A stretch of 64,000 nucleotides of DNA from Planctomycetota bacterium (lineage in GTDB: Bacteria > Planctomycetota > MHYJ01 > JACQXL01), in assembly GCA_016235865.1 (NCBI GenBank), contig JACRIK010000021.1, positions 97,226-161,225 on the forward strand, written 5' to 3'. The notes below the pieces were generated by a model. It ran no database searches, was not told the DNA's origin, and worked only from the letters and a program-made list of their open reading frames with translations. A program made the translations under genes and the position numbers. Each line of letters starts with the position of its first letter. Positions within the stretch are counted from its first letter, which is position 1. Shown here piece by piece: positions 1 through 55,873 of this stretch.

Positions 1-170
1 AAGAGGGATATGAGGGGATTGGAAACAATGGGGATGATAAAAAGCTTTTCTTTATTTGACTCCATCAGGCAGAAGTGGTATTGATTCATTATTAACCGGT
101 GGCGGACGATTGTCTTTGGCAAGGATGCCATTGACGGTGATTTCGTTAAACTTTAACCTGCATAGAGCTA

Positions 171-230
171 AGAGCGTAGAGCGTATAGTAAATTCCTTAA
201 CATCTATGCTATAAGCCCTATGCTCTAAGC
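171..230. repeat. repeat family A (agagcgtagagcgtatag ... ctatgctataagccctatgct)
   Basis: same bipartite architecture as 4479-4534. Confidence 0.7.
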
Positions 231-238
231 TGTAAATT

Positions 239-1783
239 ATGGAAGACAAATTGAAGTTATTGCGCCAGAAGAAGGCCGAGTCGCTCCTGGGCGGCGGTAA
301 GGACAAAATCGCCAAACAACACCAGCAGGGTAAACTCTCGGCCCGGGAACGGATTGACCTGTTGCTGGACAAGGATAGTTTCCAGGAACTGGACGCCTTT
401 GTGGTCCACCAGTGCGACCATTTCGGTATGGAGGATAAAAAGGTCTTGGGCGACGGCGTGGTCACCGGCTACGGCACGATTGACGGCCGGCTGGTCTATG
501 TCTTCAGCCAGGATTTCACGGTCTTCGGCGGCTCGCTGGGCGAGGCCTTTGCCAACAAGATTTGCAAGGTGATGGATTTGGCTATGAAGGTGGGCGCGCC
601 AATCATCGGCATCAACGATTCCGGCGGCGCCAGAATCCAGGAAGGCGTGGTCTCGCTGGGCGGATATGCCGAGATTTTCTTCCGCAATACTTTGGCCTCC
701 GGAGTCATACCACAGCTTTCCATTATTATGGGACCCTGCGCCGGCGGCGCGGTTTATTCGCCGGCACTGACCGATTTCATCGTCATGGTCAAGAACACCA
801 GCCATATGTTTATCACCGGGCCTGAGGTCATCAAGTCCGTGACGGCCGAGGAAATCACCTTTGAGCAATTAGGCGGGGCGATGACCCACAACGCCAAGTC
901 CGGCGTGGCCCATTTTGCGGCTGATGACGAGAAGGCCGGCATCAAACTGATTCGGGAGTTGATGGGATTTATCCCGGCCAATAATATGGAAGAGCCGCCG
1001 TATGCCAAGCCCAAGGACAAGCCCAACCGGATGGCCAAGGAATTGCTCAAGGTCATACCGGATGATTCTAACAAGCCCTATAATATCATTGATGTCATTA
1101 AGCACGTGGTTGACGACGCGGAGTTCCTGGAGATACACAGCGAGTGGGCTAAGAATATGGTCATTGGCTTTGCCCGGCTGAACGGGCACAGTATCGGAAT
1201 AGTGGGTAATCAACCGGCTCATCTGGCCGGATGCCTGGATATCAATGCATCGGTCAAGGCCGGACGCTTTGTCCGGTTCTGCGACGCCTTTAATATTCCG
1301 CTGGTGACCTTTGTGGATGTGCCGGGATTCCTGCCGGGCAGCGCACAGGAATACGGCGGCATTATCCGGCACGGCGCTAAACTACTTTACGCTTATTGCG
1401 AGGCGACGGTGCCGAAGCTGACTGTGATTACCCGCAAGGCCTACGGCGGGGCATACGACGTGATGTGCAGTAAGCATGTCCGGGCGGATATGAATTTCGC
1501 CTGGCCGACGGCTGAGATTGCCGTGATGGGTCCGGATGGCGCGGTGAATATTATTTTCCGTAAGGAGATTATCGAGAGCAAGGACGCCAAGAAGACCAAG
1601 GATAAGCTGGTGTCCGAATACCAGGAAAAGTTTGAGAATCCCTATATCGCGGCCGAGCGCGGGTATATTGACGAGGTGATTGAGCCGCAGGAGACCCGGC
1701 CGAAACTGATTACGGCCCTGGAGAGTTTGTTGAATAAGCGGGAGTCCCGGCCGCCTAAGAAACACGGGAATATACCGCTCTAA
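239..1783 (+). CDS. acyl-CoA carboxylase carboxyltransferase subunit (methylmalonyl-CoA/propionyl-CoA carboxyltransferase, 12S-type)
   Basis: 514 aa ORF; strong family resemblance to PccB/MmdA carboxyltransferases (GGARIQEG..., two CoA-carboxyltransferase halves). Confidence 0.9.
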
Positions 1784-1789
1784 GAAGAG

Positions 1790-2020
1790 ATGAGAGATGA
1801 GAGTGGAGAGATGAGAGAGAATGACCTGGCGCTTATCAGCGCGGCGGTTTATGCGTATCTGTCGGATGGTCAGCCAGTCCTTCAGTCGGCCAGTCAACCG
1901 GCAGACAGGCAGACCGGCAGACCTTTTATCAGGCAAACCGGTAGACGTAACCGCTGGAAGCAGGCGTTTTTCCCTCAGGTAAATGAAAAAGGGATGAGGT
2001 GTAACCAATGGTCAAGATAA
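1790..2020 (+). CDS. putative small acyl-CoA carboxylase epsilon-like subunit
   Basis: 76 aa ORF between the 12S and 5S genes; 'ENDLALISAAVYAYL' resembles the EE(L)AA(I)xAA motif of AccE/PccE-type epsilon subunits; preceded by tandem gagatga repeats; overlaps next gene start by 13 nt. Confidence 0.35.
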   Translation: MRDESGEMRENDLALISAAVYAYLSDGQPVLQSASQPADRQTGRPFIRQTGRRNRWKQAFFPQVNEKGMRCNQWSR

Positions 2021-3864
2021 CCGAAACTGTTTTGCGTGACGGGCACCAGTCATTGATTGCCACCCGGATGGCAACTGAGGATATGCTGCCGATTCTGGAA
2101 AAGATGGACCGGGTCGGATTCTTTTCCCTGGAGATGTGGGGCGGGGCGACCTTTGACGTCTGCCTGCGTTATCTCAAGGAGGATCCCTGGCAACGGCTGA
2201 GGCAAATCCGGGAGCGGGTTAAGTCCACCAAGCTTCAGATGCTCCTGCGCGGCCAGAATCTGGTCGGCTACCGCCATTATCCGGATGATATCGTGGTCAA
2301 GTTTATCCAAAAGTCGCGAGACAATGGCATCGATGTGTTCCGTATCTTTGACGCCCTGAATGATATCCGGAATCTGGAACTGTCCATCAAGACGGCCAAG
2401 AAGACCGGGGCCATGGTGGAAGGCACCATATCATACACGGTCAGTCCGATTCATACCATTGCGAAATTCATCAGTTTCGCCAGCGAGCTCAAGGATGCCG
2501 GGTCTGATATTATCTGCATCAAGGATATGAGCGGGATTATCACGCCGACCGCGGCTTACGACCTGATTAATGCTTTGAAGAAAGAGATTAAACTGCCGGT
2601 GCATCTGCATACCCATTGCACCAGCGGCATGGCGCCGATGGTATATCTGCTGGCTTGTGAGGCCGGGGTTGATTACCTGGACACAGCCATTTCGCCGTTC
2701 GGCTGGGGCACCTCACAGCCGCCGACCGAGAGCATTGTCGGCGCGCTCAAAGGCACGCCGTTTGATACCGGACTTAATTTAGACATTATTGTTGAGATTT
2801 CAGAACATTTCCAGAAGGTGCGCGAGAAATATAAGAGCATTTTAGACCCGATTTCAGAACGGGTGGACCCGAAGATATTAGTGCATCAGACCCCGGGCGG
2901 GATGATTTCCAATCTGATATCGCAGCTCAAGGAGCAGAATGCGCTGGATAAATACGATGAGGCGCTCAAGGAAACCGCGTTGGTGCGCAAGGATTTGGGC
3001 TATCCGCCGCTGGTCACGCCGACCAGCCAGATCGTCGGTACCCAGGCGGTCTTTAATGTCATTCTGGGCGAGCGCTATAAGATGATTTCCAATGAGGTCA
3101 AGGATTACATCAAGGGATTATACGGCCGCTCGCCCGGGCTGATTGACGAGGAGCTGCAGAAGAAGGCTATCGGGAATGAAACTCCGATTACCACCCGGCC
3201 GGCCGAGTCCATTGCGCCGGAATGGGACAAATCGCTTGAGACAGTCAAGGCCTTAAAGCAGACCGACCAGCCGTCAGATGAGGATGTGCTGGCCTATGCG
3301 CTTTTCCCGTTGGTGGCCAAGGAATTCTGGGCTAACCCGGCAGTGGTTGCAGCGCCGGCGCCAGCAGTAAGCCCTGTAGAGGCGAAACAACCCAAGGAGG
3401 AGGTAGATTCATATTCTTCTAAGGCTACATTGGTACTGGAGTTGAACAACAAGAAATATTCGGTCAAGGTTACGCCGGCTTCATCCGGCAGTTTAAAGGT
3501 GGATGTAGAGGGCCGGCCTTATGATGTCAAGGTTTCTTATTCGGGAAAATCCGGATTAAAGAAGCCGGCAGCAGAAATTAAGCCCGAGCCGGCCGCGGTA
3601 AAATCCGCCCAGCCAATAGCGCCGGTTCAGGCTGCGACTGAGGGCGGTATGACCAATGTCACGGTGCCGATGCCCGGCAAGGTGGTAAATATCAAGGTGA
3701 AAATATCAGATAAGGTCAAGAAAGGGGAAGTGCTTTTTATACTTGAGGCGATGAAGATGCAGAATGAAATCTGCGCGCCCGGCGACGGTATTATCAGCGA
3801 GATTTCAATAAAGGTGGGCGATACAGTTGATAACCAAACAATACTGATGAAGATAAAGGGGTAA
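2008..3864 (+). CDS. oxaloacetate decarboxylase alpha / pyruvate carboxylase subunit B-like carboxyltransferase (5S-type) with C-terminal biotinyl domain
   Basis: 618 aa; N-terminal 'VLRDGHQSL' TIM-barrel carboxyltransferase; C-terminal 'EAMKMQNEI' biotin attachment motif. Confidence 0.9.
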   Translation: MVKITETVLRDGHQSLIATRMATEDMLPILEKMDRVGFFSLEMWGGATFDVCLRYLKEDPWQRLRQIRERVKSTKLQMLLRGQNLVGYRHYPDDIVVKFIQKSRDNGIDVFRIFDALNDIRNLELSIKTAKKTGAMVEGTISYTVSPIHTIAKFISFASELKDAGSDIICIKDMSGIITPTAAYDLINALKKEIKLPVHLHTHCTSGMAPMVYLLACEAGVDYLDTAISPFGWGTSQPPTESIVGALKGTPFDTGLNLDIIVEISEHFQKVREKYKSILDPISERVDPKILVHQTPGGMISNLISQLKEQNALDKYDEALKETALVRKDLGYPPLVTPTSQIVGTQAVFNVILGERYKMISNEVKDYIKGLYGRSPGLIDEELQKKAIGNETPITTRPAESIAPEWDKSLETVKALKQTDQPSDEDVLAYALFPLVAKEFWANPAVVAAPAPAVSPVEAKQPKEEVDSYSSKATLVLELNNKKYSVKVTPASSGSLKVDVEGRPYDVKVSYSGKSGLKKPAAEIKPEPAAVKSAQPIAPVQAATEGGMTNVTVPMPGKVVNIKVKISDKVKKGEVLFILEAMKMQNEICAPGDGIISEISIKVGDTVDNQTILMKIKG

Positions 3865-6315: not shown

Positions 6316-9294
6316 TTATAGATATTTCTTCAATATTTTTCCAGTATAAGAGCGTTCTTGCCTGGCAATCTCTTCAGGGGTGCCGGAAGCGACTACTCGG
6401 CCGCCTTCATCACCGCCTTCGGGTCCCAGATCAATGATATAGTCAGCCATTTTGATGACGTGCATATTATGTTCGATGACCACAACGCTGTTACCGCGGT
6501 CCACCAGTCGATTGAGGACATTGAGCAGTTTATTGATATCGGAGAAATGCAGGCCGGTAGTCGGCTCGTCAAGTATGTAAAGGGTTTTATTGGTGGCGGT
6601 CTTGCCTAATTCAGCTGATAGCTTGACCCGCTGGGCTTCGCCGCCTGAGAGCGTGATGCTGGATTGGCCCAGGGCGATATAGCCCAGTCCGACGTTATCG
6701 AGTGTCTTGAGGATGCGCACGATATGCGGGAAGTTCTGGAAGAATTCCACGGCGGCTGAGACCTCCATTTCCAGGACATCGGCGATATTCTTACCCCGGT
6801 AGGTGATGTCCAGGGTCTCGCGGTTATATCTTTTGCCTTTGCACTGTTCACAGGTGATGTAGACATCAGGCAGGAAGTGCATCTCGATTAGTTTAGTGCC
6901 TTGGCCCTGGCAGTCGGCGCATCGGCCGGCCTTGAGATTAAAACTAAATCGGCCGGACTGGTAACCCCGTAATCGGGCTTCCTTAGTCATGGTAAAGACC
7001 TTGCGTATCTCGTCAAAGACGCCGGTATAAGTGGCCGGATTTGAACGAGGCGTCCGGCCAATCGGCGACTGGTCAATGATAATTACTTTGTCAACATGTT
7101 CGGCACCGATAATGTCGTCGCATTCACCTGAACGAATCCGGCTCCGGTAAATTTTCTTCATCAGCCCTTTATAGAGGATTTCATTGACCAGCGTGCTTTT
7201 GCCTGAGCCGGATACGCCGGTTACACAGGTAAAGCAACCTAATGGGATGGGTACATTGATGTCTTTCAGGTTGAATTCCCGGGCCCTGATGATGTTTAGC
7301 CAGTTATGTTCGCTCGCGCGGTCTCTGCGGAGTTCGCTGGCGCGGTCACTGCGGCCTTCTGATTTGTCATTTTTTATTTTATTATTAGCAGTATTTGGCT
7401 GCGGGAATAGATTGCGGTCAAAACGCCTTTTCTTTGGCACTTCTATTCTTAATTTATTGGTCAGGTATTGCAGGGTCAGGGAATGGTTATTATTATTTTC
7501 TCCTGAAGTTCCGTTAGGCGGTTTTACAGTATTATTATTGTTTGTCATTTTACCGTTTAGGACATCCTTACTCGGAGCCGAGATGATTACCTGTCCACCC
7601 CGGGTGCCGGCGCCCGGACCGACATCAATCAGATAATCCGATGCCCTGATGGTGTCTTCGTCGTGCTCAACTACAATGACTGTATTGCCTAAGTTTCTTA
7701 ATTTTATCAGGGTATTGAGCAGGCGTTGGTTATCGCGTTGGTGCAGTCCGATGGTTGGTTCGTCAAGGACATAGCAGACCCCGACCAGACCTGAACCGAC
7801 CTGGGAAGCCAGCCGTATCCGTTGGGCCTCGCCGCCTGAAAGCGTCAAACTGCGCCGGTCTAATGTCAGGTAGGACAGTCCCACGTCTATCAGAAATGAA
7901 AGGCGGTTCTTGATTTCCTTTAACGCCATCTGTCCGATAAGCGTCTGTTCAGCGGTTAGGACGAGTTTATCAAAGAAGTGATAGGCGTCCTTAACCGCCA
8001 TCTGAATCACCTCGGAGATATTTTTTCCGCCGATGCGGACGGCCAGTGGCTCTGGTTTTAAGCGCGCGCCTTTGCAGGTTGGGCAGGGCAGTTCGCTCAT
8101 ATATGAGTGTATCCGGTGCTTGACTCCTTCGCTCTGGGTTTTGTAGAACCGGTTCTCCAAGTCCGGTATCACGCCGGTAAAACTGCGTTTATATTTGGCT
8201 TCATCTGGTTGATTGGTGCCGTACATCAGGATCCGTTTCTTATCTTCAGGCAGGTTGTAGAAAGGCGCATCCATAGCTATGTTGAAATCGCCGGCGAACT
8301 CCTTGATAACATACGAATAATAAATAGCCATCCGGTGTCCGGATTTACGCCAAGCCTCGATGGCTCCGTTAGCCAGCGAGAGCGACTTGTCAGGCACAAT
8401 CAGGTCCATATCCAGTTCCATCCGTGTGCCCAGGCCGTTGCAGCGTGGGCAGGCGCCATAAGGTGAATTAAACGAGAATATCCGCGGGCTTAATTCCGAT
8501 AAACTTATCTGGCATTCCGGACAGGCAAAATGCTCCGAGAATACCAGGTCGGAAAACCGTTTGCCCTGGGGCTGATGCGAGATGATGACCAATCCTTCGC
8601 CTAATCTCAATGCGGTTTCGACCGAATCAGCCAGCCGGCTCTTTTCTATGCCGGCAGGCTCAACGCTCAGTCTGTCGATGACTATCTCGATATTATGACG
8701 TTTGTATTTATCCAGTTTAGGGACGGATGAGCCGAGTTCTATAACCTTGTTGTCAACCCGGACTCGGACAAAGCCATTGCGCCGGATGCGTTCAAAGACA
8801 TCCCGATGTTCGCCTTTTTTGCCTCGGATAATCGGAGCCAGGACAATAATCCGGGAATAAGCCGGGAATGATTGGATATGCTGGATAATCTGCTGGGCGG
8901 ACTGTTTGACAATTGGTTTATTGCACTTGGGGCAGAAGGGTTGGCCCAACCGGGCGAAGATAACGCGCAGATAATCATATATCTCGGTAGTGGTAGCCAC
9001 GATCGAGCGAGGTGTGCCGGTTCCGCCCCGTTGTTCTATAGAAATCGTGGGAGGCAGGCCTTCGATAGATTCCACATCCGGTTTGGCAATTTGTTCCAGG
9101 AACTGCCGGGCGTAGGCCGAGAGCGATTCGATATAACGGCGTTGTCCCTCGGCGTAAATGGTATCAAAAGCCAGGGAGGTCTTGCCTGAGCCGGAGACAC
9201 CGGTTACCACAATTAGTTTATCACGCGGGATATCAATGTTGATATTCCTGAGATTATGCTCCTTGGCTCCGCGTATGGATATATGATTGGTCAT
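6316..9294 (-). CDS. uvrA: excinuclease ABC subunit A (UvrA) with internal low-complexity/repeat insertion
   Basis: 992 aa; two ABC ATPase modules, Zn fingers; N-term '[42 protein letters not shown]'. Confidence 0.9.
7311..7356. repeat. dispersed repeat family B (modules X+Y) inserted in-frame in uvrA
   Basis: cgcgcggtctctgcggagttcgctggcgcggtcactgcggcc; translated '[13 protein letters not shown]' on minus strand. Confidence 0.85.
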
Positions 9295-15267: not shown

Positions 15268-16119
15268 ATGTTGCCGTCCTGGTTAAAACAGAATAAACCA
15301 TCGCTGGGCAAATCCATGGCAATTAATAATATCATCAAGAGTCATGGTCTTCATACGGTCTGCCAGAGCGCCAAATGCCCCAATATCTTCGAATGCTTTG
15401 CCAAAGGCACGGCTACCTTTATGATTCTGGGCGATGCCTGCACCAGGCACTGCCGGTTCTGCTCGGTCAAGAAACAAGCGCCTCTGCCGTTGGCTTCCAA
15501 TGAAGCGAAGGAAGTGGCGGATGCCTGTTGCAAGATGAAACTAAAACATGTCGTGATTACTTCGGTTACCCGCGATGATTTGCCGGACGGCGGGGCAGGC
15601 GTATTCTATGATACGATTATGGAAGTGCGTAAGACGTCTCCTGGAGTGGCTATTGAGGTCCTGACTCCGGATTTCCAGGGTAATCAAACAAGCATCCGCC
15701 AGGTTGTCTCAGCCCAACCCGATATATTTAATCACAATATCGAAACCGTGCCCCGGCTTTACTCCGAGATTAGACCCGAAGCGGATTATCAGCGCTCATT
15801 AAAACTGCTGGCCTATGTTAAGGAGTTAAACCCGGCCATGCGGACCAAGTCAGGCCTGATGTTGGGATTAGGAGAAAGAGAAGACGAGGTGCTGTCGGTG
15901 CTCAAAGACCTGAGGGTCGTGGATTGCGATATGGTTACCATCGGTCAATACCTGCGCCCGTCATTAAGCGCCGGAACCGTGGAGGTGGCCAGATTCGTCC
16001 CGCCCGAGGAATTCGAGGCATACCGCGCCAAGGCATCAGAGATGGGTTTTAAGGCCGTGGCCTCGGGTCCTTTTGTTCGCTCGTCATACATGGCTGCGGA
16101 GTTGTACGGAGTTCGCTAG
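15268..16119 (+). CDS. lipA: lipoyl synthase
   Basis: 283 aa; radical-SAM CxxxCxxC (CTRHCRFC) plus N-terminal auxiliary cluster cysteines. Confidence 0.9.
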   Translation: MLPSWLKQNKPSLGKSMAINNIIKSHGLHTVCQSAKCPNIFECFAKGTATFMILGDACTRHCRFCSVKKQAPLPLASNEAKEVADACCKMKLKHVVITSVTRDDLPDGGAGVFYDTIMEVRKTSPGVAIEVLTPDFQGNQTSIRQVVSAQPDIFNHNIETVPRLYSEIRPEADYQRSLKLLAYVKELNPAMRTKSGLMLGLGEREDEVLSVLKDLRVVDCDMVTIGQYLRPSLSAGTVEVARFVPPEEFEAYRAKASEMGFKAVASGPFVRSSYMAAELYGVR

Positions 16120-16138
16120 CGCGGTCACTGCGGTGTTC
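16096..16138. repeat. repeat family B module Y overlapping lipA stop codon
   Basis: gcggagttgtacggagttcgctagcgcggtcactgcggtgttcc. Confidence 0.85.
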
Positions 16139-20163: not shown

Positions 20164-22026
20164 ATGAATTTTCTGCGTAAAATATTTAAGAAGAAAGCGC
20201 AGGTTGATCCTGCCAATGATCCTAACATGGTAAAGGCCTATGATGGATATGGTCGGGAAATATTTATCTCCAAACAGCAATGGAAGGACAAGGTACTCCT
20301 GAAGAATCTAGAGGAGAAACGCAACAATCCTAATCAGCTTTATGATTGGCTTTTCTTGGCACTGAAAGATGGATTTGTGCAAGATATTGTTCCTTATGCC
20401 GAGCATTTATGGCGCACTGACCCTATTCCATCCAGGGGAGCCGCAGTACTCGGTATTGTCTATATGAAGAATAACCGCTTGGATGAGGCGGAACGAGTAT
20501 TAAATGATTTCCTGTCAGCACATGGCGATAATGGGGTTGTTCTGACTAACTTGGCAAAGGTATACGATAAACGGGGGGATAAAGCAAAAGCCGAATCAAT
20601 TCTTTGGCATGCCTTGGAGGTTGACCCTAATCAGGAAAATGGGCTTGCTTGGTATATTGCAATTCAGAGTGAGCGGGGAGGCGAAGCGTCGGTACTCGAT
20701 GCCTATCATCATATCGCCGCTTGGCCCAAAAGCTGGAGGGTCCAGCTTTGGTTGGCGCGTGAGGCGCTTGCACGCAAAGATTTGCCAGCTGCGGAGGCAT
20801 TTTACGCGGAAGTATTTGCCAGGGCTGAGCGTCCGGTTCCCGATTATGTCCTTACACAAATAAGTGGAGACTTAGGTAAGAACGGATATCTGGCAGAGAT
20901 GTTTCGTCTGGTCGAGCCTCATTTTGACCCGGCTATTCACGGCTTTAATGTTGGAAATAATCTTATAATGGCCAATCGTGAACTTGGTCGCACAGATATT
21001 GCCCGGCGTATTCTAAATCAGCTTTATGCCCAGAAACGTCCTGATTGGCAGCATGCGTTAAAGTACTGGGACACTGAACTTGCCAAAGACGAAGTAGCGC
21101 GCAAGGCGCAACAAAACCCCGGACAATCTATTGTTTTCATTTCAACAGAAGGTCCGTTATGGGCAAGTAAGGAATCCCCATTTGCAGTTCTCATGCCGGC
21201 TAAATCTGGTAACACACCGCAGATTGCCGTTTTGGGAAGCATGGCCTTGTTTTCGGAGTTATCCAAAAAGCCTGTGCCTCAACTCAGCGATGCTCCGGGC
21301 CGTATCAGCCGGATTGTTGCTCTTTTTCTGGCTGAAAAAATCCACCTTCAAACCGATGCGGTTGGTATAGCTTTAACTCCTTGGGCGCAAAAACTAGGGT
21401 TTGCTGTTTTTGGTAATCCCTACGGCGACAAGGATCTCTGTGAAGTTGCATGTAAGAGTGTGAAAGTTCCGCATTTTATCGTTGCTGTCAATTTTGATGC
21501 TACCCAGTTAAAATGGAAAATGATACTACGCTTATTGAGGGTGAGTGATTGTGTGCGTGTTGCAGAAGAACAGATTGAAGCCGATCCGCTGAATCCCGGA
21601 CCAGCTATTGAGCTTTTAGCTCAAACGCTTCAACAGTTGCTTGCTAAATACGCCGGGGTGCATATTACGGCACATCCGCAATGGTACCAGAATCTATCCG
21701 GACCGGATTTATCTGACTATCTTCTGCGGCTTGAGCAACAACTTGCAGTAATATGTAAAAATCTCGATTTCCTCGAAGGAGGAGGTTTGTTCGGGGAACA
21801 TGAAATCATTGATGGTGTTTTGCAACTCTGTCTAAGTCAGCCGGCAAGCCAATTGGTTAGAATGGTTCTGGCCCAAACGCTCCGGCAGATGAGCAAATTG
21901 CACCCGGAACTTATTTCCGAATATAAAGATAAGATTAATTTACTCCAACGGACTCATCTTCTGACAGGAGAAGTTGGCGAATTGATTAATAAAGCCATTA
22001 ATCAGACAATGACACGGACGGCTTAG
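20164..22026 (+). CDS. hypothetical protein, TPR-like N-terminal region; atypical codon usage
   Basis: 620 aa ORF; codon usage (cgt/gca/ctt, lower GC3) differs from neighbours. Confidence 0.55.
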   Translation: MNFLRKIFKKKAQVDPANDPNMVKAYDGYGREIFISKQQWKDKVLLKNLEEKRNNPNQLYDWLFLALKDGFVQDIVPYAEHLWRTDPIPSRGAAVLGIVYMKNNRLDEAERVLNDFLSAHGDNGVVLTNLAKVYDKRGDKAKAESILWHALEVDPNQENGLAWYIAIQSERGGEASVLDAYHHIAAWPKSWRVQLWLAREALARKDLPAAEAFYAEVFARAERPVPDYVLTQISGDLGKNGYLAEMFRLVEPHFDPAIHGFNVGNNLIMANRELGRTDIARRILNQLYAQKRPDWQHALKYWDTELAKDEVARKAQQNPGQSIVFISTEGPLWASKESPFAVLMPAKSGNTPQIAVLGSMALFSELSKKPVPQLSDAPGRISRIVALFLAEKIHLQTDAVGIALTPWAQKLGFAVFGNPYGDKDLCEVACKSVKVPHFIVAVNFDATQLKWKMILRLLRVSDCVRVAEEQIEADPLNPGPAIELLAQTLQQLLAKYAGVHITAHPQWYQNLSGPDLSDYLLRLEQQLAVICKNLDFLEGGGLFGEHEIIDGVLQLCLSQPASQLVRMVLAQTLRQMSKLHPELISEYKDKINLLQRTHLLTGEVGELINKAINQTMTRTA

Positions 22027-22077
22027 TGATACGACTTTCTAGTCCAGGGACACAACAAATTATCCTCCATCCTTACA

Positions 22078-22455
22078 GCGACCATAGAGTATCCCCTAAG
22101 CGGGGGCGGTCTATCCCCTAAGCGGGGATGGGCTATCCCCTAAGCGGGGAGGGGCTATCCCCTAAGCGGGGACGGGCTATCCTCTAAGCGGGGAGGGACT
22201 ACCCCCTAAGCGAGGGTGGACTATCCCCTAAGCTGGGAGGGGCTACCCCCTAAGCGGGGTGGGGCTACCCCCTAAGCGGGGATGGGCTATCCCCTAAGCG
22301 AGGTGGGGCTATCCCCTATGCGAGGTAGGGCTATCCCCTAAGCGAGGTGGGACTATTCCCTAAGCCGGGACGGGCTATCCCCTAAGCGGGGACGGACTAT
22401 CCCCTAAGCCGGGAGGGGCTACCCCCTAAGCGGGGATGGGCTATCCCCTATGCGA
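22078..22455. repeat. tandem array, ~17 copies of 22-bp unit CTATCCCCTAAGCGGGGATGGG
   Basis: head-to-tail copies with point variation, no spacers; stops in all frames. Confidence 0.9.
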
Positions 22456-22661
22456 GGATGGGGTATCACGGGTGCGGGGATGGGGGGAGGGGGGAGGGGG
22501 GATACCCCACCCCCCACCGTCTGAACCGGTTTTTGAGATAATAACTTTATGGATAAATGGTTACGCCAAAACCCGAGTGATTTTGGTAGCAGATTTCAGC
22601 CCGGATTACTTATTTAACGAGACATTAGACGACTTTTGGGGGTCGATATTGGCCTTTTGTT

Positions 22662-23636: not shown

Positions 23637-23653
23637 AAGATGTATATAGTAAA

Positions 23654-23696
23654 ATCCCCCTTAATCCCCCTTTTGCAAAGGGGGAAGGGGGATTAG
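23654..23696 (-). terminator. nested poly-C/poly-G palindrome, candidate terminator for por operon
   Basis: atcccccttaatcccccttttgcaaagggggaagggggat, perfect nested inverted repeat directly downstream of porB. Confidence 0.4.
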
Positions 23697-23715
23697 AGCA
23701 AATAGTCCTATAACC

Positions 23716-24717
23716 TTAAGTGCCAACCGTCTCAAGGTCAGGTTTTTTGTCGCCCTGATTACACTTCTTGAGCAGTTTTTCCCATTCCTTATCCACATTG
23801 GCCTGGAGTTTGTTGATAAGCTCCTGGTTCGGTCCGCTCCGGTGGGTGCTCCCGGTCTCTGCGGAGTTCCCGCCCTTGGCGAAGATGTGCTTGAACCGGC
23901 CCTGGGGCTTGAGCCATTCGGTGATGGGTTTCTTTTCCTTGGGGATATAATTGAGTTTGTATTCCCCGTTTTCCACTTCATAAAGCGGCCAGTAGCAGGT
24001 ATCAGCCGCAATCCGGGCCAGGTTGATGGAGTCCTTCATCTCGTTTCGCCAGCCCCGGTGGCAGGGCGAGAGGATATTCAGGAAGCTCGGGCCGTCAGCG
24101 GCCAGTGCCTTTTTGACCTTGGTCATCAGGTCGCGCCAATGGGCCGGCGTGGTCTGGGCCAGGTAGGGGATATTATGGGCTGCCACGATGCCGGTCAGGT
24201 CCTTGCGGAAGACCGGTTTGCCGTAACTGGCCGAGCCGGCCGGGGTAGTGGTGGTGGAAGCGCCCATTGGGGTGGCGCCGGAGCGCTGGATGCCGGTATT
24301 CATATAGGCCTCGTTGTTGTAGCAGACATAGAGGAACTTGTGGCCGCGTTCCAATGCGCCGGAAAGCGCCTGCAAGCCGATATCAAAGGTCCCGCCGTCG
24401 CCGCCCACGGCGATGAATTTAATGGTCTTGGTAACCTTGCCCTGGCGTTTGAGCGACTGGTAAGCGGCCTCGATGCCGGAGATGGTCGCGGCCGAATTCT
24501 CGAAGGCGCTGTGAATCCAGTTGCATTTCCAGGCCGTATACGGATAGGTGGCGGTGGCCACATAGAGACAGCCGGTAGCCACGGACATAACCACCGGGTC
24601 TTCGGCGGCCATCAATATCTGGCGGAAGGTGGTTCCGGCGCCGCAACCGGCGCAAAGCCGGTGTCCGGAGACGAATGTTTCTTCCTTCTTGGATAATTCT
24701 TTTAAACTTAGTGCCAT
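23716..24717 (-). CDS. porB: pyruvate:ferredoxin oxidoreductase beta subunit (TPP-binding)
   Basis: 333 aa; 2-oxoacid:ferredoxin oxidoreductase beta family. Confidence 0.85.
   Translation of the reverse strand: MALSLKELSKKEETFVSGHRLCAGCGAGTTFRQILMAAEDPVVMSVATGCLYVATATYPYTAWKCNWIHSAFENSAATISGIEAAYQSLKRQGKVTKTIKFIAVGGDGGTFDIGLQALSGALERGHKFLYVCYNNEAYMNTGIQRSGATPMGASTTTTPAGSASYGKPVFRKDLTGIVAAHNIPYLAQTTPAHWRDLMTKVKKALAADGPSFLNILSPCHRGWRNEMKDSINLARIAADTCYWPLYEVENGEYKLNYIPKEKKPITEWLKPQGRFKHIFAKGGNSAETGSTHRSGPNQELINKLQANVDKEWEKLLKKCNQGDKKPDLETVGT
23828..23874. repeat. repeat family B module X inside porB 3' coding region
   Basis: ttcggtccgctccggtgggtgctcccggtctctgcggagttcccgcc. Confidence 0.85.
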
Positions 24718-24758
24718 AAAATTCCTTTCTTACTTAATTTTTGCGAAACGCCCCTTCC

Positions 24759-24827
24759 GTCATTCCCGTGTAAACGGGAATCCAGTAATCACATGGGGTC
24801 TGGATTCCTGCTTTCGCAGGAATGACA
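24759..24827. repeat. compound palindromic element (ATTCCC-N8-GGGAAT + ATTCCT-N8-AGGAAT) between porB and porA
   Basis: gtcattcccgtgtaaacgggaatccag...tggattcctgctttcgcaggaatgaca. Confidence 0.85.
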
Positions 24828-24838
24828 TAAAAGGGAAA

Positions 24839-26074
24839 TTATTCTCTTACCGTTAAATAGTCAAACACCTTATCAACCTTGCCGGCCTTGGCCACATCAA
24901 ACAATTTCTGGAATACCTTGTTGATGTCTTCCAGCCGGATATCGCGTCCGCCGATTCCATAGATGTAATTAATCATCAGGGGCTGTTTGGGCAGTCCGTA
25001 CATGGCAGACCTGACCTCGGTAAAGGTCGGGGTGCCGCCGGCGCCGAAGGCATCGACCCGGTCCATAACCGCGATGGCCTTGAGATGTTTCAGCGCGTTC
25101 TTGATTTCCTCTGCCGGGAACGGCCTGAAGATGCGGGGCTTGAGCAGCCCGACCTTGACGCCCTTGGCCCGGAGTTCATTGACCACCATCTTGGCCACGC
25201 CGGCCGCGGAATTGATGATGACCAGCGCGTATTCGGCGTCATCCAATTTGTAGGATTCGAACAGCCCGTATTTCCGGCCGGACATCTTGGCGAATTCCTC
25301 GGCCACCTCAAGTATCTTGGCCTTGCTGTTTATAATCGCCTCGGAATGCTGGCGTTTGTGTTCGGTATAATAATCCTGCAGGGCGCAGGCGCCGATAGTC
25401 ACCGGGTTATCCACATCCAGCAGTGAATTTATGGCTTTGAACTCGCCCACGAATTTCCTGACCGCCTCGTCATCGAGCAGGTCAACCCGTTCCACGGAAT
25501 GGGTGGTGATGAATCCGTCCATCGAGACCATGACCGGCAGGCGGATGTCCATATCTTCGCCGATGCGGACGGCCTGGATGAGGTTGTCATACATCTCCTG
25601 GGCGTTTTCGGAGTATATTTGGATCCAGCCGGAATCGCGTCCGCCCATGGTATCATCGTGCCCGCAGTGGATATTTAGCGGCGCGCTTAAGGAGCGGTTG
25701 GCTACATACATTATCACCGGTGTGCGCAGTCCGGCGGCGATGGGCAGCATCTCCCACATCAGGGCGAATCCGGCTGATGAGGTGGCGGTCATGGTCCGGG
25801 CGCCGGCGGCTGAAGAGCCGATACAGGCGCTCATGGAACTATGCTCGCTTTCCACCGGCACGTATTGGGTCTTGACCAGTCCGTTGGCCACGAACTCGGC
25901 GAATTCCTCCACGGCCTCGGTCTGGGGCGTAATCGGATAGGCGGCCACCACGTCCGGATTAATCTGGCGCATGGCCTCGGATACCGCGTTGTTTCCGGTC
26001 ATTGCAGCTATTCGGTTCGCTCCGGTAGGTGCTCCCGGTCTCTGCGGAGTTCTGGCGTTTTTGTTGTCTGTCAT
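24839..26074 (-). CDS. porA: pyruvate:ferredoxin oxidoreductase alpha subunit
   Basis: 411 aa; POR alpha family; repeat-derived N-terminal extension. Confidence 0.85.
   Translation of the reverse strand: MTDNKNARTPQRPGAPTGANRIAAMTGNNAVSEAMRQINPDVVAAYPITPQTEAVEEFAEFVANGLVKTQYVPVESEHSSMSACIGSSAAGARTMTATSSAGFALMWEMLPIAAGLRTPVIMYVANRSLSAPLNIHCGHDDTMGGRDSGWIQIYSENAQEMYDNLIQAVRIGEDMDIRLPVMVSMDGFITTHSVERVDLLDDEAVRKFVGEFKAINSLLDVDNPVTIGACALQDYYTEHKRQHSEAIINSKAKILEVAEEFAKMSGRKYGLFESYKLDDAEYALVIINSAAGVAKMVVNELRAKGVKVGLLKPRIFRPFPAEEIKNALKHLKAIAVMDRVDAFGAGGTPTFTEVRSAMYGLPKQPLMINYIYGIGGRDIRLEDINKVFQKLFDVAKAGKVDKVFDYLTVRE
26011..26057. repeat. repeat family B module X inside porA 5' coding region
   Basis: ttcggttcgctccggtaggtgctcccggtctctgcggagttctggcg (about 2 mismatches vs 23828-23874). 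Confidence 0.85.
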
Positions 26075-26134
26075 CTTAACGTCCCTTCTATAAGATACTT
26101 ACTTTTTTTACCGCGTCATTCCCGCCCCGTGTTT

Positions 26135-26227
26135 GTCATTCCCGCGAAAGCGGGAATCCACGGGATAAACTCCAGCGGGAATCTATACTTCTGGATTCCT
26201 GCCTACGCAGGAATGACAGAGAGTGAA
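26135..26227. repeat. compound palindromic element between porA and porD
   Basis: gtcattcccgcgaaagcgggaatcca...ctggattcctgcctacgcaggaatgaca. Confidence 0.85.
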
Positions 26228-26230
26228 TAG

Positions 26231-26524
26231 TTACTTCTTATCCTCCACCATCTGGATGGCCTTGACTTTATCCGGGCATTCCTCGGCGCAGATGCCGCAA
26301 CCCTTGCAGTATTTCAGGTCAAACTCGGCAATCTTGCCGTCCTTGACCTTGATGCAGCCATCCGGGCAGTAAATCCAGCAGAGCAGGCAGTTGGTGCATT
26401 TCTTGTTATCGTGCACCGGCTTGAGGTTGCGCCAGCCGCCGGTTTCATACTGCATACTACAGCCCGGGTCTTTGATAATTGAGCCGATAGGCATCTCGTG
26501 GCGATTCATTGTCTTCTTTGCCAT
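26231..26524 (-). CDS. porD: pyruvate:ferredoxin oxidoreductase delta subunit (2x[4Fe-4S] ferredoxin)
   Basis: 97 aa; two CxxCxxCxxxCP motifs. Confidence 0.85.
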   Translation of the reverse strand: MAKKTMNRHEMPIGSIIKDPGCSMQYETGGWRNLKPVHDNKKCTNCLLCWIYCPDGCIKVKDGKIAEFDLKYCKGCGICAEECPDKVKAIQMVEDKK

Positions 26525-26607
26525 ATTATTAATCTCCTTTTTAGAGCCAGTTAGGAACAGAGTGACTTACTGGGTCTTATCCCGGCAGTTTTTGCCGGGA
26601 CACCTCA

Positions 26608-27177
26608 TTATTCCTTTACTTCTGCGAAACCCTTTTTAATAGAGTTCAGGTTGCCCTCGACCACCTTGGCGGCGAATTTCTCGCCGAATGAATGTTTGAT
26701 ATCAGCCAGCAGACCGTCCAGCGAAACCACGTTGGTGGTCTTGACGATAGCGCCCATTATCGGCGTATTGGGCATGGTCCGGCCCAGTTCTGCGATGGAG
26801 ATGCCGGTGGCGTCCACGGTATAGATTTTATTGCCGTCCATCTTAAGTTTAGCGCGAAGTTCGGCCGGTGTCTTGGTGGTATTGACGATGATAATTCCGC
26901 CTTTATTAAGGCCTTCGGCCACGTTGACCGTATCCAGCAGCGAATCATCCAGCACCACCACCACATCCGGGTTGACCACGGAGCAGTAGAGCGAGAAATT
27001 ATCCTGGCTGACCCGGTTATAGGCGCGCATCGGAGCGCCCATCCGTTCCGGCCCGAACTCCGGCATGCCCTGGGCGTATTTGCCTTCGGTAATGGCGATT
27101 CTGGCCAGGGTCCGGGCGGCTAACATCGCTCCTTGCCCGCCCCGGGCGTGCCATCTGATTTCTGTTATTTTAGACAT
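26608..27177 (-). CDS. porG: pyruvate:ferredoxin oxidoreductase gamma subunit
   Basis: 189 aa; POR gamma family; gene order porG-D-A-B. Confidence 0.85.
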   Translation of the reverse strand: MSKITEIRWHARGGQGAMLAARTLARIAITEGKYAQGMPEFGPERMGAPMRAYNRVSQDNFSLYCSVVNPDVVVVLDDSLLDTVNVAEGLNKGGIIIVNTTKTPAELRAKLKMDGNKIYTVDATGISIAELGRTMPNTPIMGAIVKTTNVVSLDGLLADIKHSFGEKFAAKVVEGNLNSIKKGFAEVKE

Positions 27178-27207
27178 GTTTAGCGCTCCATTCTATTTCG
27201 TCTAAAT

Positions 27208-27237
27208 GTCATTGCGAGTATAGTCCCTCGCAATGAC
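27208..27237. repeat. related hairpin (gtcattgcgag..ctcgcaatgac) between porG and accD
   Basis: gtcattgcgagtatagtccctcgcaatgac. Confidence 0.6.
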
Positions 27238-27262
27238 AGAAAGAGGGTCTTTCAATAATCTC

Positions 27263-39198: not shown

Positions 39199-39330
39199 GT
39201 CATTCCCGTGAAAACGGGAATCCAGAGGGATAAACTCCGGCGGGAAGCCAGTCCCTCTGACGGGATGGTGGGAACCGTAAGCCCAAAGATGTCTGGATTC
39301 TGTGTCAAGCACGGAATGCCAGTTTAATAG
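39199..39330. repeat. compound palindromic element (partly degenerate) between ftsB-like and ruvB
   Basis: gtcattcccgtgaaaacgggaatccagagggataaactccggcgggaagcc...tggattctgtgtcaagcacggaatgcc. Confidence 0.7.
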
Positions 39331-41619: not shown

Positions 41620-41697
41620 TTCGCGGATGACACAGATTAAAAATAATCAGTGAAATCTGTGAACACCGCAGTGACCGCGACAGCGAAATCTGTGGTT
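41620..41697. repeat. AACCACAGAT...ATCTGTGGTT terminal-inverted-repeat element
   Basis: 10-bp perfect TIRs, internal cacagatt/aatctgtg sub-repeats. Confidence 0.8.
41663..41693. repeat. repeat family B module Y (reverse orientation), intergenic, nested in AACCACAGAT element
   Basis: RC = ttcgctgtcgcggtcactgcggtgttcac. Confidence 0.8.
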
Positions 41698-41866: not shown

Positions 41867-42601
41867 ATGCAAGTAATAAGAAATCTTACTGTTCTTATAG
41901 TTTTAGGATGTTTTATCTCAGCCAGCGGCTGCACAAGCATGATAAATCGATCCAGTTATTCTTTAAGGACTTTAAGCACGTTAAGTGGAGCAGGTCTTAC
42001 CGTTACTGGTACCAAAGAAAGTAATGCCGTAAACCCCCAGTCACAAACCACCAGTTCAGTCAACAAGCAATCGGGAACAGAAAAGCCGGGCGGGAATGAG
42101 AACCAGTCCACATTCGCCTTGAGATTCGGTGATTATGTTTTTTATAATAAAAGCAATCGGGAATATTATGGCAGTAGCGTGGGCGATAATTCATTGGATA
42201 TGACTTTCGGAACGGCTAATCCCAATATTTCTTGGCGGATTGCGATTGACGGCGCGGCCACGGAATCAGACGAACTGTTTTTCGGCGGATTTTCCGGCTC
42301 GGTTGTTTTTCACACTTCACGGGCAGAAATGGTAAGATGGTTCGGCGGATTAGGTTTGGGCTCCTATTCGGCCGAAGAATATGGCGTAGATAACTATGGC
42401 TATTCCGTTTTGTATGAAGGACGCGGCATCGGCTATAAGGCGTTCGGAGGCGTTGAAGTTGCCTTATCATCCGGATTTGCTCTAAGTATGGAGCTGGCCC
42501 TGAGAGAACTGACAGCCAGAATGGCGGCTTCTAACGCATCAACTACAAATGTAAGTTACAGCGGACAGGCGTTACTTTTCGGATTAAACTTTAGTTTCTG
42601 A
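41867..42601 (+). CDS. putative outer-membrane beta-barrel lipoprotein
   Basis: 244 aa; signal peptide + lipobox-like SASGC; alternating beta-strand pattern; C-terminal ...LNFSF aromatic terminus. Confidence 0.5.
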   Translation: MQVIRNLTVLIVLGCFISASGCTSMINRSSYSLRTLSTLSGAGLTVTGTKESNAVNPQSQTTSSVNKQSGTEKPGGNENQSTFALRFGDYVFYNKSNREYYGSSVGDNSLDMTFGTANPNISWRIAIDGAATESDELFFGGFSGSVVFHTSRAEMVRWFGGLGLGSYSAEEYGVDNYGYSVLYEGRGIGYKAFGGVEVALSSGFALSMELALRELTARMAASNASTTNVSYSGQALLFGLNFSF

Positions 42602-54460: not shown

Positions 54461-55873
54461 TCATTTCCATTCGATAACAGGTGGAATATCCTGAACGCTA
54501 AGCCAGGTTTTATTCGCAAGCGTTAGGGTGGTTCGTGTGTTATCAGGAAGAGTATAGGTAATTGTTTTTTTGCCATTTATGACTTCTTGTACCTGCGCAT
54601 CCGGGTATAATTTATTCAGAACCTTTTGATACGCATTAAACGATTCGTAGGCATCGTTATCTGAATCCCATATGGTCGAGAGGAATAAAACAATATCCTT
54701 GGTTTTATTGTTTTGGAGCAGGAAATATTTATCGCCATCCCAGCCCTCCGATGCCTCGCCGGCTTTTCCTTTGGCATAACTGCTGAATAGAATCCAAAAG
54801 CCGAATTCCCCCATGGTGTTTTCGGCCAGTATGGTCCATTCATCGCCAGCCTGGGGCGGTGTAATCGATTCAGGGGTATCGCGCGGTTCGGCCAATTTTT
54901 TGGTATGAATCATCTGTTCGGTTGATATAGGCGGATTCTTATATGTCCCGCTAACCAGCTGCCAGTTTTTTTGCTTCTCATCAATGGTCACCATGGTATG
55001 AATGGAGTAGGCGCCGTGGTAATAAGGCGCTATCAGCAGCCAGAAAAGATAATCCGGCACATCCTTGAGGGCTATTATGGATTCATATAAGTCAGGCGCT
55101 GTTTCTTTATACTGTTCAGCCATTGATGTTGATAACTCCAGTAAATCTTTGCGCCCCAGATTTTTGTAGCGGCTGAAAGCCATTTCCATCATCGGGCTGT
55201 CCGGCGCAAAGGTGATGCCCATTTTCTCTAACTGGGCAATGGTCATGACATAAGTGGCTTCTCCTTCTACCAGATATCTGATAGCGGTTTCCTGGTCGCT
55301 ATTATTCGCTGTTTTGATCAGTTTTCCCAGGTCATAATACTGGTCCTGGAGGGCGTGAGTCAGTTCGTGGATAACCATGGTTTCCATTTCCATCTGCGGC
55401 ATATTGATTTTTATGAAATACATACACTTGGTTTCGGGGTCATAATAAGCTCCGGCCTGGCTGACCAGCAGGTTTTCCAGTCCTTTTTTCATGTCATAAT
55501 TCTTGGGTAACAATCCCAGTTTAGATAATGCCAGCTGGTTCCATCTGCTTTCCTCATCAAATGATTTATCCAGGTCTTTTTTCACGAAAGTCCTAAATTC
55601 CTCAACGGATTGTACCGCTCCTTTGACATCAGACTTAAACTTCTTGCCGCTGATTCTTTCCACGATTTCCTGGCAGGATTTCAGGTTGACCGGGATTCCC
55701 GGCGTAGCAGCGGCGGAGTCCGCCGGCGCGGTCACTGCGGTTGTTCCCCGAAGGCTTTCGGGGGGCGCAGCGGCTGATTTGTCATCCGGTTTATTACTGC
55801 CGCCAGCGCAGCTAATAGAGGCGATAGAAATTAGTGTCAATGCTAATACTAAGGCAATATGTTTTTTATGCAT
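54461..55873 (-). CDS. putative lipoprotein zinc metallopeptidase (HExxH)
   Basis: 470 aa; lipoprotein signal 'LISIASISCAG'; 'MVIHELTHALQDQ' HExxH motif. Confidence 0.5.
   Translation of the reverse strand: MHKKHIALVLALTLISIASISCAGGSNKPDDKSAAAPPESLRGTTAVTAPADSAAATPGIPVNLKSCQEIVERISGKKFKSDVKGAVQSVEEFRTFVKKDLDKSFDEESRWNQLALSKLGLLPKNYDMKKGLENLLVSQAGAYYDPETKCMYFIKINMPQMEMETMVIHELTHALQDQYYDLGKLIKTANNSDQETAIRYLVEGEATYVMTIAQLEKMGITFAPDSPMMEMAFSRYKNLGRKDLLELSTSMAEQYKETAPDLYESIIALKDVPDYLFWLLIAPYYHGAYSIHTMVTIDEKQKNWQLVSGTYKNPPISTEQMIHTKKLAEPRDTPESITPPQAGDEWTILAENTMGEFGFWILFSSYAKGKAGEASEGWDGDKYFLLQNNKTKDIVLFLSTIWDSDNDAYESFNAYQKVLNKLYPDAQVQEVINGKKTITYTLPDNTRTTLTLANKTWLSVQDIPPVIEWK
55709..55765. repeat. 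repeat family B module Y inside lipoprotein peptidase gene, plus poly-C/G hairpin
   Basis: gcggcggagtccgccggcgcggtcactgcggttgttccccgaaggctttcgggggg. Confidence 0.85.

Follow-up and report, generated by a model that had tools for sequence, protein, structure and literature searches.

How did one short sequence come to lie in the genes for two subunits of a single enzyme, and how does it come to be read there as two different peptides? The question is raised by a 64-kb stretch of a Planctomycetota genome (contig JACRIK010000021.1, positions 97,226 to 161,225; hereafter the window), in which a 42-nt module occurs at 23828-23869 in porB and again at 26011-26052 in porA, the genes predicted to encode the beta and alpha subunits of a 2-oxoacid:ferredoxin oxidoreductase. 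The minus strand is the sense strand of the porG-porD-porA-porB operon, as assigned by Pfam; both copies are on it, and module coordinates are given here in minus-strand sense. Our analysis indicates that the two copies are likely to be independent insertions of one discrete DNA unit, which belongs to a family of short repeats bounded by GAA and is copied at the level of DNA, with the reading frame set by the site. The unit is discrete, was gained precisely at GAA-containing sites, is dispersed, is polymorphic within the population and is read in three frames.

The near-identical repeat described in an earlier, sequence-only reading of this DNA is real: 40 of 42 positions agree between the copies, which are two transitions apart (C/T and G/A on the sense strand). 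The window sequence at 23828-23869 is TTCGGTCCGCTCCGGTGGGTGCTCCCGGTCTCTGCGGAGTTC, from which the copy at 26011-26052 differs by these two transitions; written on the sense strand, the module is GAACTCCGCAGAGACCGGGAGCACC[C/T]ACCGGAGCG[G/A]ACCGAA. A search of the window allowing up to three mismatches returned precisely these two sites, and 100 dinucleotide-preserving shuffles, which served as the null, gave no match. In an ungapped comparison the similarity of the flanks breaks off sharply at both ends of the module, and the end coordinates proposed earlier (23874 and 26057) proved 5 nt too long, the true ends being 23869 and 26052. The porB copy consists of GAA, a 36-nt core (CTCCGCAGAGACCGGGAGCACCCACCGGAGCGGACC) and a second GAA. 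Each por site has gained a net 39 nt, or 13 codons, and the identity extends over 42 nt because GAA flanks a filled site on each side and occurs once in an empty site (we call an allele or site filled when it has the module and empty when it does not). The GC content of the module is 69%, compared with 50% for the window. All six frames of the module are open, so that insertion in either orientation brings no stop codon.

In porB (23716..24717, minus strand; 333 aa, thiamine pyrophosphate-binding, assigned by PF02775 with E=2e-19 and by homologs) the net 39-nt insertion is in frame and occupies residues 284-296, where it is read NSAETGSTHRSGP; the module itself starts in the third position of a codon and yields GNSAETGSTHRSGPN. 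In porA (24839..26074, minus strand; longest open reading frame (ORF) 411 aa, POR_N and PFOR_II, PF01855 and PF17147) the net 39-nt insertion falls between the codons for R and I of the conserved N-terminus MPR|IAAM and is read TPQRPGAPTGANR if the start is at 26074; in this longest ORF the module begins at codon position 2 and is read RTPQRPGAPTGANRI. The earlier claim that the two copies are translated in different frames thus stands as codon position 3 in porB against position 2 in porA, the porA part holding only with the ATG at 26074. The two genes would read different peptides because the frame is dictated by the site. In an AlphaFold2 model built from a 24-sequence alignment (predicted TM-score, pTM, 0.75), PorB residues 283-294 form a coil with a per-residue confidence (pLDDT) below 50 between helices 276-279 and 298-320, and the modelled insert is consistent with a tolerated surface loop.

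Comparison of orthologs shows that both peptides are lineage-specific insertions. Among 23 aligned PorB homologs, the 13-residue block is present only in the window protein and in one protein 98% identical to it, while all homologs at or below 83% identity have a clean 13-column gap. Within the PorB 90% cluster (18 members, 14 aligned), the alleles of at least 94% identity comprise six that are filled and eight that are empty; the filled allele P0001 and the empty allele P0149 are identical in all 320 other residues. At the DNA level, the closest backgrounds (L029 and L030; L numbers denote DNA loci or contigs of related organisms used for comparison) have the empty site GGCGG-GAAC-CAGGAG, and the filled site reads GGCGG-GAAC[TCCGCAG...GGACCGAAC]CAGGAG, an exact gain of 39 nt. 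The filled porB alleles are not monophyletic: the nearest allele to the filled L002 is the empty L030, from which it differs at 17/963 nt, against 34/1002 from the filled window allele.

At porA only the window allele of the PorA 90% cluster is filled, and nine members start with MPRIAAMTGNN. The empty site, CCAAGAATAGCTGCAATG, is found in L002, L025 and L028, whose DNA is ATGCCAAGAATAGCTGCAATG where the window has GCCAGAA[C...39 nt...GAA]TAGCTGCAATG; the junction pair is CCAAGAATAGC when empty and CCAGAA[C...39 nt...GAA]TAGC when filled. Presence/absence polymorphism is accompanied by what looks like a target-site duplication, GAA (in porB GAAC) being doubled at filled sites and single at empty ones. 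The porA copy is confined to the source genome; the porB copy is common to several strains and is, for that reason, the older of the two.

The alignments speak directly to the view that the shared sequence is a peptide motif of PorA and PorB, conserved or selected convergently. In its favor, the two peptides are hydrophilic and belong to the same enzyme complex; but the different frames yield unrelated peptides, no other POR homolog has the block, most alleles of at least 94% identity lack it, and the same DNA is present in non-POR genes and in intergenic DNA (see below); we give this view practically no credence. The peptides are not conserved in the POR subunits of other taxa, conservation there being what the sequence-only reading had named as its refutation. 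An artefact of assembly, or a chimera, is also very improbable. The porA copy was seen only in the material of one sample (the NCBI metagenome-assembled genome (MAG) and the Logan assembly of SRR12113407), but two different assemblers reproduce the allele, the insert keeps the frame exactly and has the GAA of its family at its borders, and the porB copy appears in independent assemblies from separate projects, among them ENA ERZ27254807 and the Hainich MAG JBBTIZ01.

The porA copy is translated or not according to the start codon used, and the start calls for PorA disagree: 387 aa in NCBI (from M25), 411 aa in Logan and 393 aa in relatives (MPRIAAM...). The NCBI start is the ATG at 26000-26002, downstream of the module, and would place the module in the 5' leader of porA. 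In relatives a strong Shine-Dalgarno sequence (AAGGAGG in L003, AGGAGG in L005) stands ahead of the codons for MP(R/K)I(A/S)A, and these codons vary chiefly at synonymous positions (ATA/ATT/ATC, GCA/GCT, CCA/CCG), which together indicate that the insertion point lies in translated sequence in these organisms. In the window a Shine-Dalgarno-like GAAGGGA stands 8 nt before the ATG at 26074, while the M25 ATG has just GGAG, 17 nt off; because of this difference in sequence context, we regard the 411-aa PorA, in which the module would be translated, as the more likely product. The spacer and leader between porD and porA (26053..26230, minus strand) are themselves lineage-specific, with 217 nt from the porD stop codon to GAATAGC as opposed to 25 nt in relatives. 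This 217-nt segment contains, in order, a pair of CGTC/TGTC-tagged hairpins resembling repetitive extragenic palindromes (REPs), an A-rich stretch, the new Shine-Dalgarno sequence and ATG, seven codons and, at its 3' edge, the module.

The two por copies are members of a wider family. The core of the module, CCGCAGWGACCG, is matched without mismatch at seven places in the window, against an expectation of 0.46 even with one mismatch allowed. The general form of the family is GAA-[C(T/A)CCGCAG(A/T)GACC...]-GAA, with short units of 21 nt plus GAA and long units of a 36-nt core plus GAA; judged from the sequence, an internal 15-nt duplication (ACCGGGAGCAC / ACCGGAGCGGAC) in the short form would account for the long one. 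In uvrA two short units stand in tandem at 7309..7359 (minus strand; GAA-21 nt-GAA-21 nt-GAA), where they are read in the third frame as residues 646-663 of an inter-domain linker. The three frames in use thus give ELRRDR in UvrA, NSAET in PorB and TPQRP in PorA and in a GcvT-like protein described below. Solved UvrA structures have about 2 residues where the window UvrA has 37, which marks this linker region, too, as a lineage-specific insertion. Upstream of the units, the linker (7360-7500, residues ~600-645) consists of further lineage-specific low-complexity sequence with NNNN runs, absent from the solved UvrA structures. A search with the linker returned only distant fragments of at most 73% identity and no close UvrA relatives with 0, 1 or 2 units; the 90% clusters of UvrA, LipA and the lipoprotein mentioned next are singletons.

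The remaining units in the window are short. One, GAA-CACCGCAGTGACCGCGCTAGC-GAA at 16112..16138 (minus strand), lies antisense to lipA and overlaps its last codons and stop. A second occupies the intergenic spacer between trmD and the gene at 41867 (41661..41687, plus strand) and is flanked by a 10-nt direct repeat, GAAATCTGTG; across 41648-41697 this repeat matches at 13/14 positions if lengthened to CAG[T/C]GAAATCTGTG, and it is far longer than the GAA or GAAC at other copies. A third, diverged unit (55718..55746, minus strand) lies in the N-terminal linker of a predicted lipoprotein (54461..55873) and is read GTTAVTAPADS. Units occur singly or as arrays that share one GAA, as in uvrA and in L028, where the variants form GAA-CTCCGCAGAGACCACGTAGT-GAA-CTTTACTGAGACCACGTAGT-GAA. 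The length of a unit plus GAA is 24 or 39 nt in coding sequence (26 nt in the diverged lipoprotein unit) and can be 23 nt in intergenic DNA. Because the coding lengths are 24 and 39 nt while 23 nt is possible between genes, the data suggest that preservation of the frame is a survival filter and not a property built into the unit.

Copies beyond the window were sought with one scan per large collection, using a 20-mer core on one genome per species and a 19-mer on metagenome contigs. The first scan found an identical porB copy, at about 95% DNA identity, in the Hainich groundwater Planctomycetota MAG (JBBTIZ01), and this species-representative MAG has no further copy. The second recovered five more full-length copies (41-42/42) outside por contexts, all with identical 42-nt boundaries. 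In L008 the module lies in the C-terminal part of a GlyA-GcvT-like ORF (14..2494) and is read TPQRPGAPTGADR. The other four copies lie at three intergenic sites: upstream of a hicB/hicA pair in L011 and L016, directly past the stop codon of a beta-CASP/MBL gene in L018, and upstream of mnmG, beside a 21-nt tandem array, in L019. Overall the module is found across genomes that differ by 5-19%. Other metagenome matches and a Streptomyces match were dismissed as chance matches to the core, and viral contigs gave only chance 19-mer matches with 25/42 identity. A six-frame peptide query against a set of 5.8 billion proteins yielded no candidates from its word index. These dispersed copies support the earlier proposal that a nucleotide element and not a protein motif is being propagated, given the exact 39-nt gains, the same DNA in unrelated contexts and the use of three frames. 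That the unit is mobile is what we infer from its presence/absence and its dispersal.

Three of the intergenic copies (L011, L018 and L019) are embedded in a larger repeat, ...GCGAAGCnnTGGTCGG-module-C-ATT-hairpin-AAGCGCACCGGG..., whose hairpin shows compensatory changes at 3/7 pairs. Across these loci 0/42 columns vary within the module and 18/48 in the surrounding repeat (Fisher p = 2e-6), and either the module entered diverged, pre-existing repeats recently or its sequence is constrained. The reconstructed targets bear some likeness to one another, GG(G/T)CGG-GAA-C in porB and in the three extended loci. Constraint would be expected if the module were a functional cis-acting motif in nucleic acid, for example a signal for RNA processing or a site bound by a protein or a small RNA, that coordinates porA and porB and is translated only incidentally. 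An invariant module amid diverging surroundings fits such a role, as do the adjacent hairpin with its compensatory changes in the extended intergenic versions and the orientation of the family, both por copies and 9/10 members being sense to their host or adjacent gene. But the presence of the module is polymorphic among otherwise identical alleles, which makes it dispensable; most strains are without the porA copy and many are also without the porB copy; the module has no fold of its own and no Rfam match at E up to 10; and it is present in unrelated genes as well. A regulatory role of this kind is therefore distinctly improbable.

How, then, does the unit spread? Our best guess is mobilization in trans of a non-autonomous unit that duplicates 3 nt of its target, GAA, on insertion; alternatively, insertion may be strand-specific and 3' of a GAA, with the unit's own end providing the second GAA. 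Since GAA is regenerated at each end, arrays sharing a single GAA, as in uvrA and L028, follow naturally. Copies within genes would persist only if the frame is kept, no stop codon is introduced and the place is tolerant; the genic sites observed fall at an N-terminus, in a C-terminal loop and in linkers between domains. Passive translation of the inserted codons would follow, in whichever frame the site sets. For the porA copy the probable source is the porB copy, 2.2 kb away, or a sibling. The family populates a lineage of groundwater Planctomycetota.

The main rival to insertion of a discrete element requires no machinery specific to the element. Template switching during replication or repair, or short-patch gene conversion, could act at GAA(C) microhomology, in which case the porA copy would be a patch templated by the porB copy 2.2 kb off. 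The junction identity is just 3-4 nt and only once 10 nt, inverted repeats, a hairpin and (in the window) a transposase are all lacking, intergenic regions are mosaics in which units are shuffled like cassettes between shared anchors, and two copies of a rare variant stand in one operon, all as such events might leave them. Random switches should, however, vary in their end points, and the 42-nt boundaries are identical at no fewer than four unrelated sites; 3 nt is scant homology to prime such an event twice; and the porA copy is unlike every other copy at two positions, which is not expected of a fresh local copy. We consider template switching unlikely on balance, and return to the insertion of a discrete GAA-bounded unit as the reading to be weighed.

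Several observations count against that reading. The junction repeats vary (GAA, GAAC and the 10 nt at 41661), and microhomology fits them as well as target duplication does. The module has neither terminal inverted repeats nor a significant hairpin, and so offers none of the recognition features of known small elements, and no transposase, reverse transcriptase or other mobilizing gene is recognizable in the 64-kb window. The long variant is rare, with six distinct sites in all from the single scan of each large collection, and this rarity, together with the single copy in the species-representative MAG, stops short of demonstrating an active transposon. Recombination alone can explain why the filled porB alleles are not monophyletic. 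NCBI's M25 start leaves translation of the porA copy likely but unproven. Six of the seven copies are on the minus strand of a window whose GC skew is uniformly positive, and this strand bias hints at a pattern without reaching significance (p = 0.125).

The structural negatives are consistent with one another. No significant fold was found for either copy on either strand (minimum free energy z -1.44 and -0.88, none stronger than -1.6), and one of the porA-copy substitutions breaks the sole candidate stem. Rfam gave no match at E up to 1 for six loci or up to 10 for the module and the extended element, and the related loci contain no tRNA or tmRNA according to ARAGORN; a hairpin or structured RNA was rejected on the fold z-scores and Rfam. 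The window contains no REP-associated tyrosine transposase (RAYT; HUH/Y1), and its ORFs without assigned function are Bro-N, TPR, RCC1, HEAT or HD-GYP proteins or have no match. A diversity-generating retroelement was set aside, since the unit is 42 nt where template and variable repeats measure about 100 nt, the differences are not at adenines and there is no reverse transcriptase in the window, and inteins, integron attC sites and CRISPR repeats were set aside because the unit is too small and is not arrayed with spacers. Ribosomal bypassing was likewise rejected, there being no in-frame stop and no matched take-off and landing codons in porA.

A bolder version of the insertion hypothesis, which we put forward as doubtful, would treat the GAA-bounded units (21 or 36 nt plus GAA) as undescribed, ultra-small, non-palindromic mobile modules that are inserted strand-specifically at GAA by an unknown enzyme or RNA-guided activity. 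Their near-perfect conservation across 5-19% divergence would then stem from continued activity or from a sequence-specific function, and the essential proteins POR, UvrA and GcvT of uncultured Planctomycetota would be routinely remodeled by them.

The operon that carries the two copies has the composition of a four-subunit 2-oxoacid:ferredoxin oxidoreductase, with PF01558, a 2x[4Fe-4S] protein, PF01855 plus PF17147, and PF02775 in a single operon. Beside porA and porB it comprises porG (26608-27177, minus strand), encoding the gamma subunit (PF01558), and porD (26231-26524, minus strand), encoding the 2x[4Fe-4S] delta subunit; Pfam assigns the four adjacent ORFs with E-values of 1e-40 to 2e-19, and of 8e-10 for delta. 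From these domains the enzyme is predicted to be a 2-oxoacid:ferredoxin oxidoreductase acting on pyruvate or another 2-oxoacid.

The spacers of the operon hold other small repeats. REP-like hairpin pairs of the form ATTCC[C/T]G..loop..[C/T]GGGAAT, tagged with CGTC or TGTC, lie at 24756-24827 and 26126-26220, with a further hairpin at 39202-39221; of the five REP-like hairpins in the window, four occupy the spacers between porA and porB and between porD and porA, for which relatives have much shorter or different sequence. Between porA and porB, at the very position of a REP-like hairpin pair in the window, two close relatives encode a protein of the 23S-rRNA-intervening-sequence type (PF05635): L002 (3825-4271) has the gene intact, and in L030 (5010-5545) it seems to be disrupted. 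The spacers between accD and porG (27178-27262) and between porG and porD (26525-26607) contain hairpins absent from relatives (GTCATTGCGAGGGACTATACTCGCAATGAC and CCCGGCAAAAACTGCCGGG); in L002 and L030 only 1 nt separates porG from porD, and a different, AT-rich palindrome occupies the spacer between accD and porG. The spacers of the por operon look like hot spots for small insertions. Downstream of porB, a palindromic element at 23645-23712 (...AATCCCCCTTAATCCCCCTTTTGCAAAGGGGGAAGGGGGATTAG...) is conserved in L002, and in L011 and L016 a similar one adjoins the module; these may form a terminator-like repeat family.

Comparable repeats occur farther afield. In L008 the GcvT-like domain contains, in frame and about 190 nt upstream of the module, a REP-like hairpin (GTCATTCCCGCGCAGGCGGGAATCC, ~2180-2225) that is read SSSVIPAQAGIQS, so that two repeat families lie inside one gene; with REP-like hairpins found beside the module, the lineage is host to several small-repeat families at once. 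Between the gene for a TPR protein (20164..22026) and a ROK kinase gene, the window has a tandem array at 22011-22538 with a 22-nt period, about 24 copies and the rough consensus CTATCCCCTAAGCGGGGAnGGG. C-rich motifs akin to this array stand at the corresponding place in L028 (5490-5570), and L019 has a different 21-nt array (2595-2800). L019 (2860-3015) and L028 (5860-5960) also carry copies of a composite repeat upstream of mnmG, with common anchors (GGATTGTG.A.CCCTTTGCG, CAATGGTCGG and AAGCGCACCGGGTAC), different internal cassettes and opposite orientations. We considered these two loci as orthologous filled and empty sites and rejected the pairing; the composite repeats are oppositely oriented relative to mnmG and are two copies of a related mosaic repeat.

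The por insertions offer a clean natural example of proteins gaining loop or terminal residues from non-coding DNA. They also expose a hazard for annotation, in the choice of the porA start and in spurious ORFs at intergenic copies, and, for groundwater Planctomycetota, give strain-level population genetics a tractable marker. A dedicated mobilizing activity, if there is one, would have a substrate that is unusually small and free of hairpins.

Among known systems, intragenic REPs with GTAG or CGTC tags (Di Nocera et al., 2013; PMC3733652) are 20-40 nt long, single or clustered and polymorphic between strains, and some lie in ORFs, including uvrA, at N- or C-termini to which they add a few residues; the CGTC type has no dedicated transposase (PMC3733652). 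The module resembles them as a short, interspersed, intragenic and polymorphic repeat. What defines a REP, however, is a stem-loop together with GTAG or CGTC as a terminal tag, and the module has neither, the tags being absent from both of its ends, which begin GAAC and finish CGAA. It is the CGTC/TGTC-tagged hairpins of the window (24762-24823 and 26138-26214) that match the CGTC-tagged type (PMC3733652), and they form a repeat family separate from the module. MITEs, or miniature inverted-repeat transposable elements, measure 70-300 bp, with terminal inverted repeats of 15-30 bp (PMC3733652). Like them the module is non-autonomous and dispersed, with short target duplications and possible in-frame fusions, but it differs in its length of 39 nt and its lack of inverted repeats: its ends, CTCCGC... 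and ...GCGGACC, are complementary over at most 5 nt, and this is lost in the porA copy.

Two further systems invite comparison. Rickettsia palindromic elements (RPEs; Ogata et al., 2000, reviewed in PMC10969869) are selfish repeats inserted in frame at fold-compatible positions in many unrelated housekeeping genes of Rickettsia. The module shares their in-frame insertion; RPEs, however, are ~100-150 bp long, palindromic and restricted to Rickettsia, with a conserved peptide for each family, whereas the planctomycete unit measures 36 nt plus GAA, is non-palindromic and is read in three frames. The G+C clusters of yeast mitochondria (for example GC42; PMC4478555) are G+C-rich units of ~42 nt, dispersed, flanked by direct repeats of 2-3 nt, single or arrayed, polymorphic and without a known transposase, and an argument from arrays of the kind made here for regenerated GAA was made previously for these clusters (PMC4478555). 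The module matches them in its G+C-rich unit within 30-60 nt, its 2-3-nt flanking repeat and its polymorphism. The clusters, in contrast, have a conserved hairpin and are mostly intergenic in an AT-rich organelle, while the module is without a significant fold and lies in bacterial coding sequence.

A literature search for the motif found no report of it, only coincidental matches inside a Mycobacterium avium CRISPR spacer. The phenomenon is of a known kind, and this non-palindromic, GAA-bounded family appears to be undescribed. The family behaves like intragenic REPs and RPEs, as selfish or neutral repeats that survive in permissive parts of proteins, but it departs from them and from MITEs in palindrome, tag, size and inverted repeats. 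The short selfish repeats that have been described in frame within housekeeping genes, in Rickettsia and in REP-rich bacteria, are palindromic and for the most part longer. The planctomycete unit, 39 nt in length and non-palindromic, with fixed ends and a GAA junction, is caught polymorphic between otherwise identical alleles of an essential anaerobic enzyme, and its reading frame differs from site to site.

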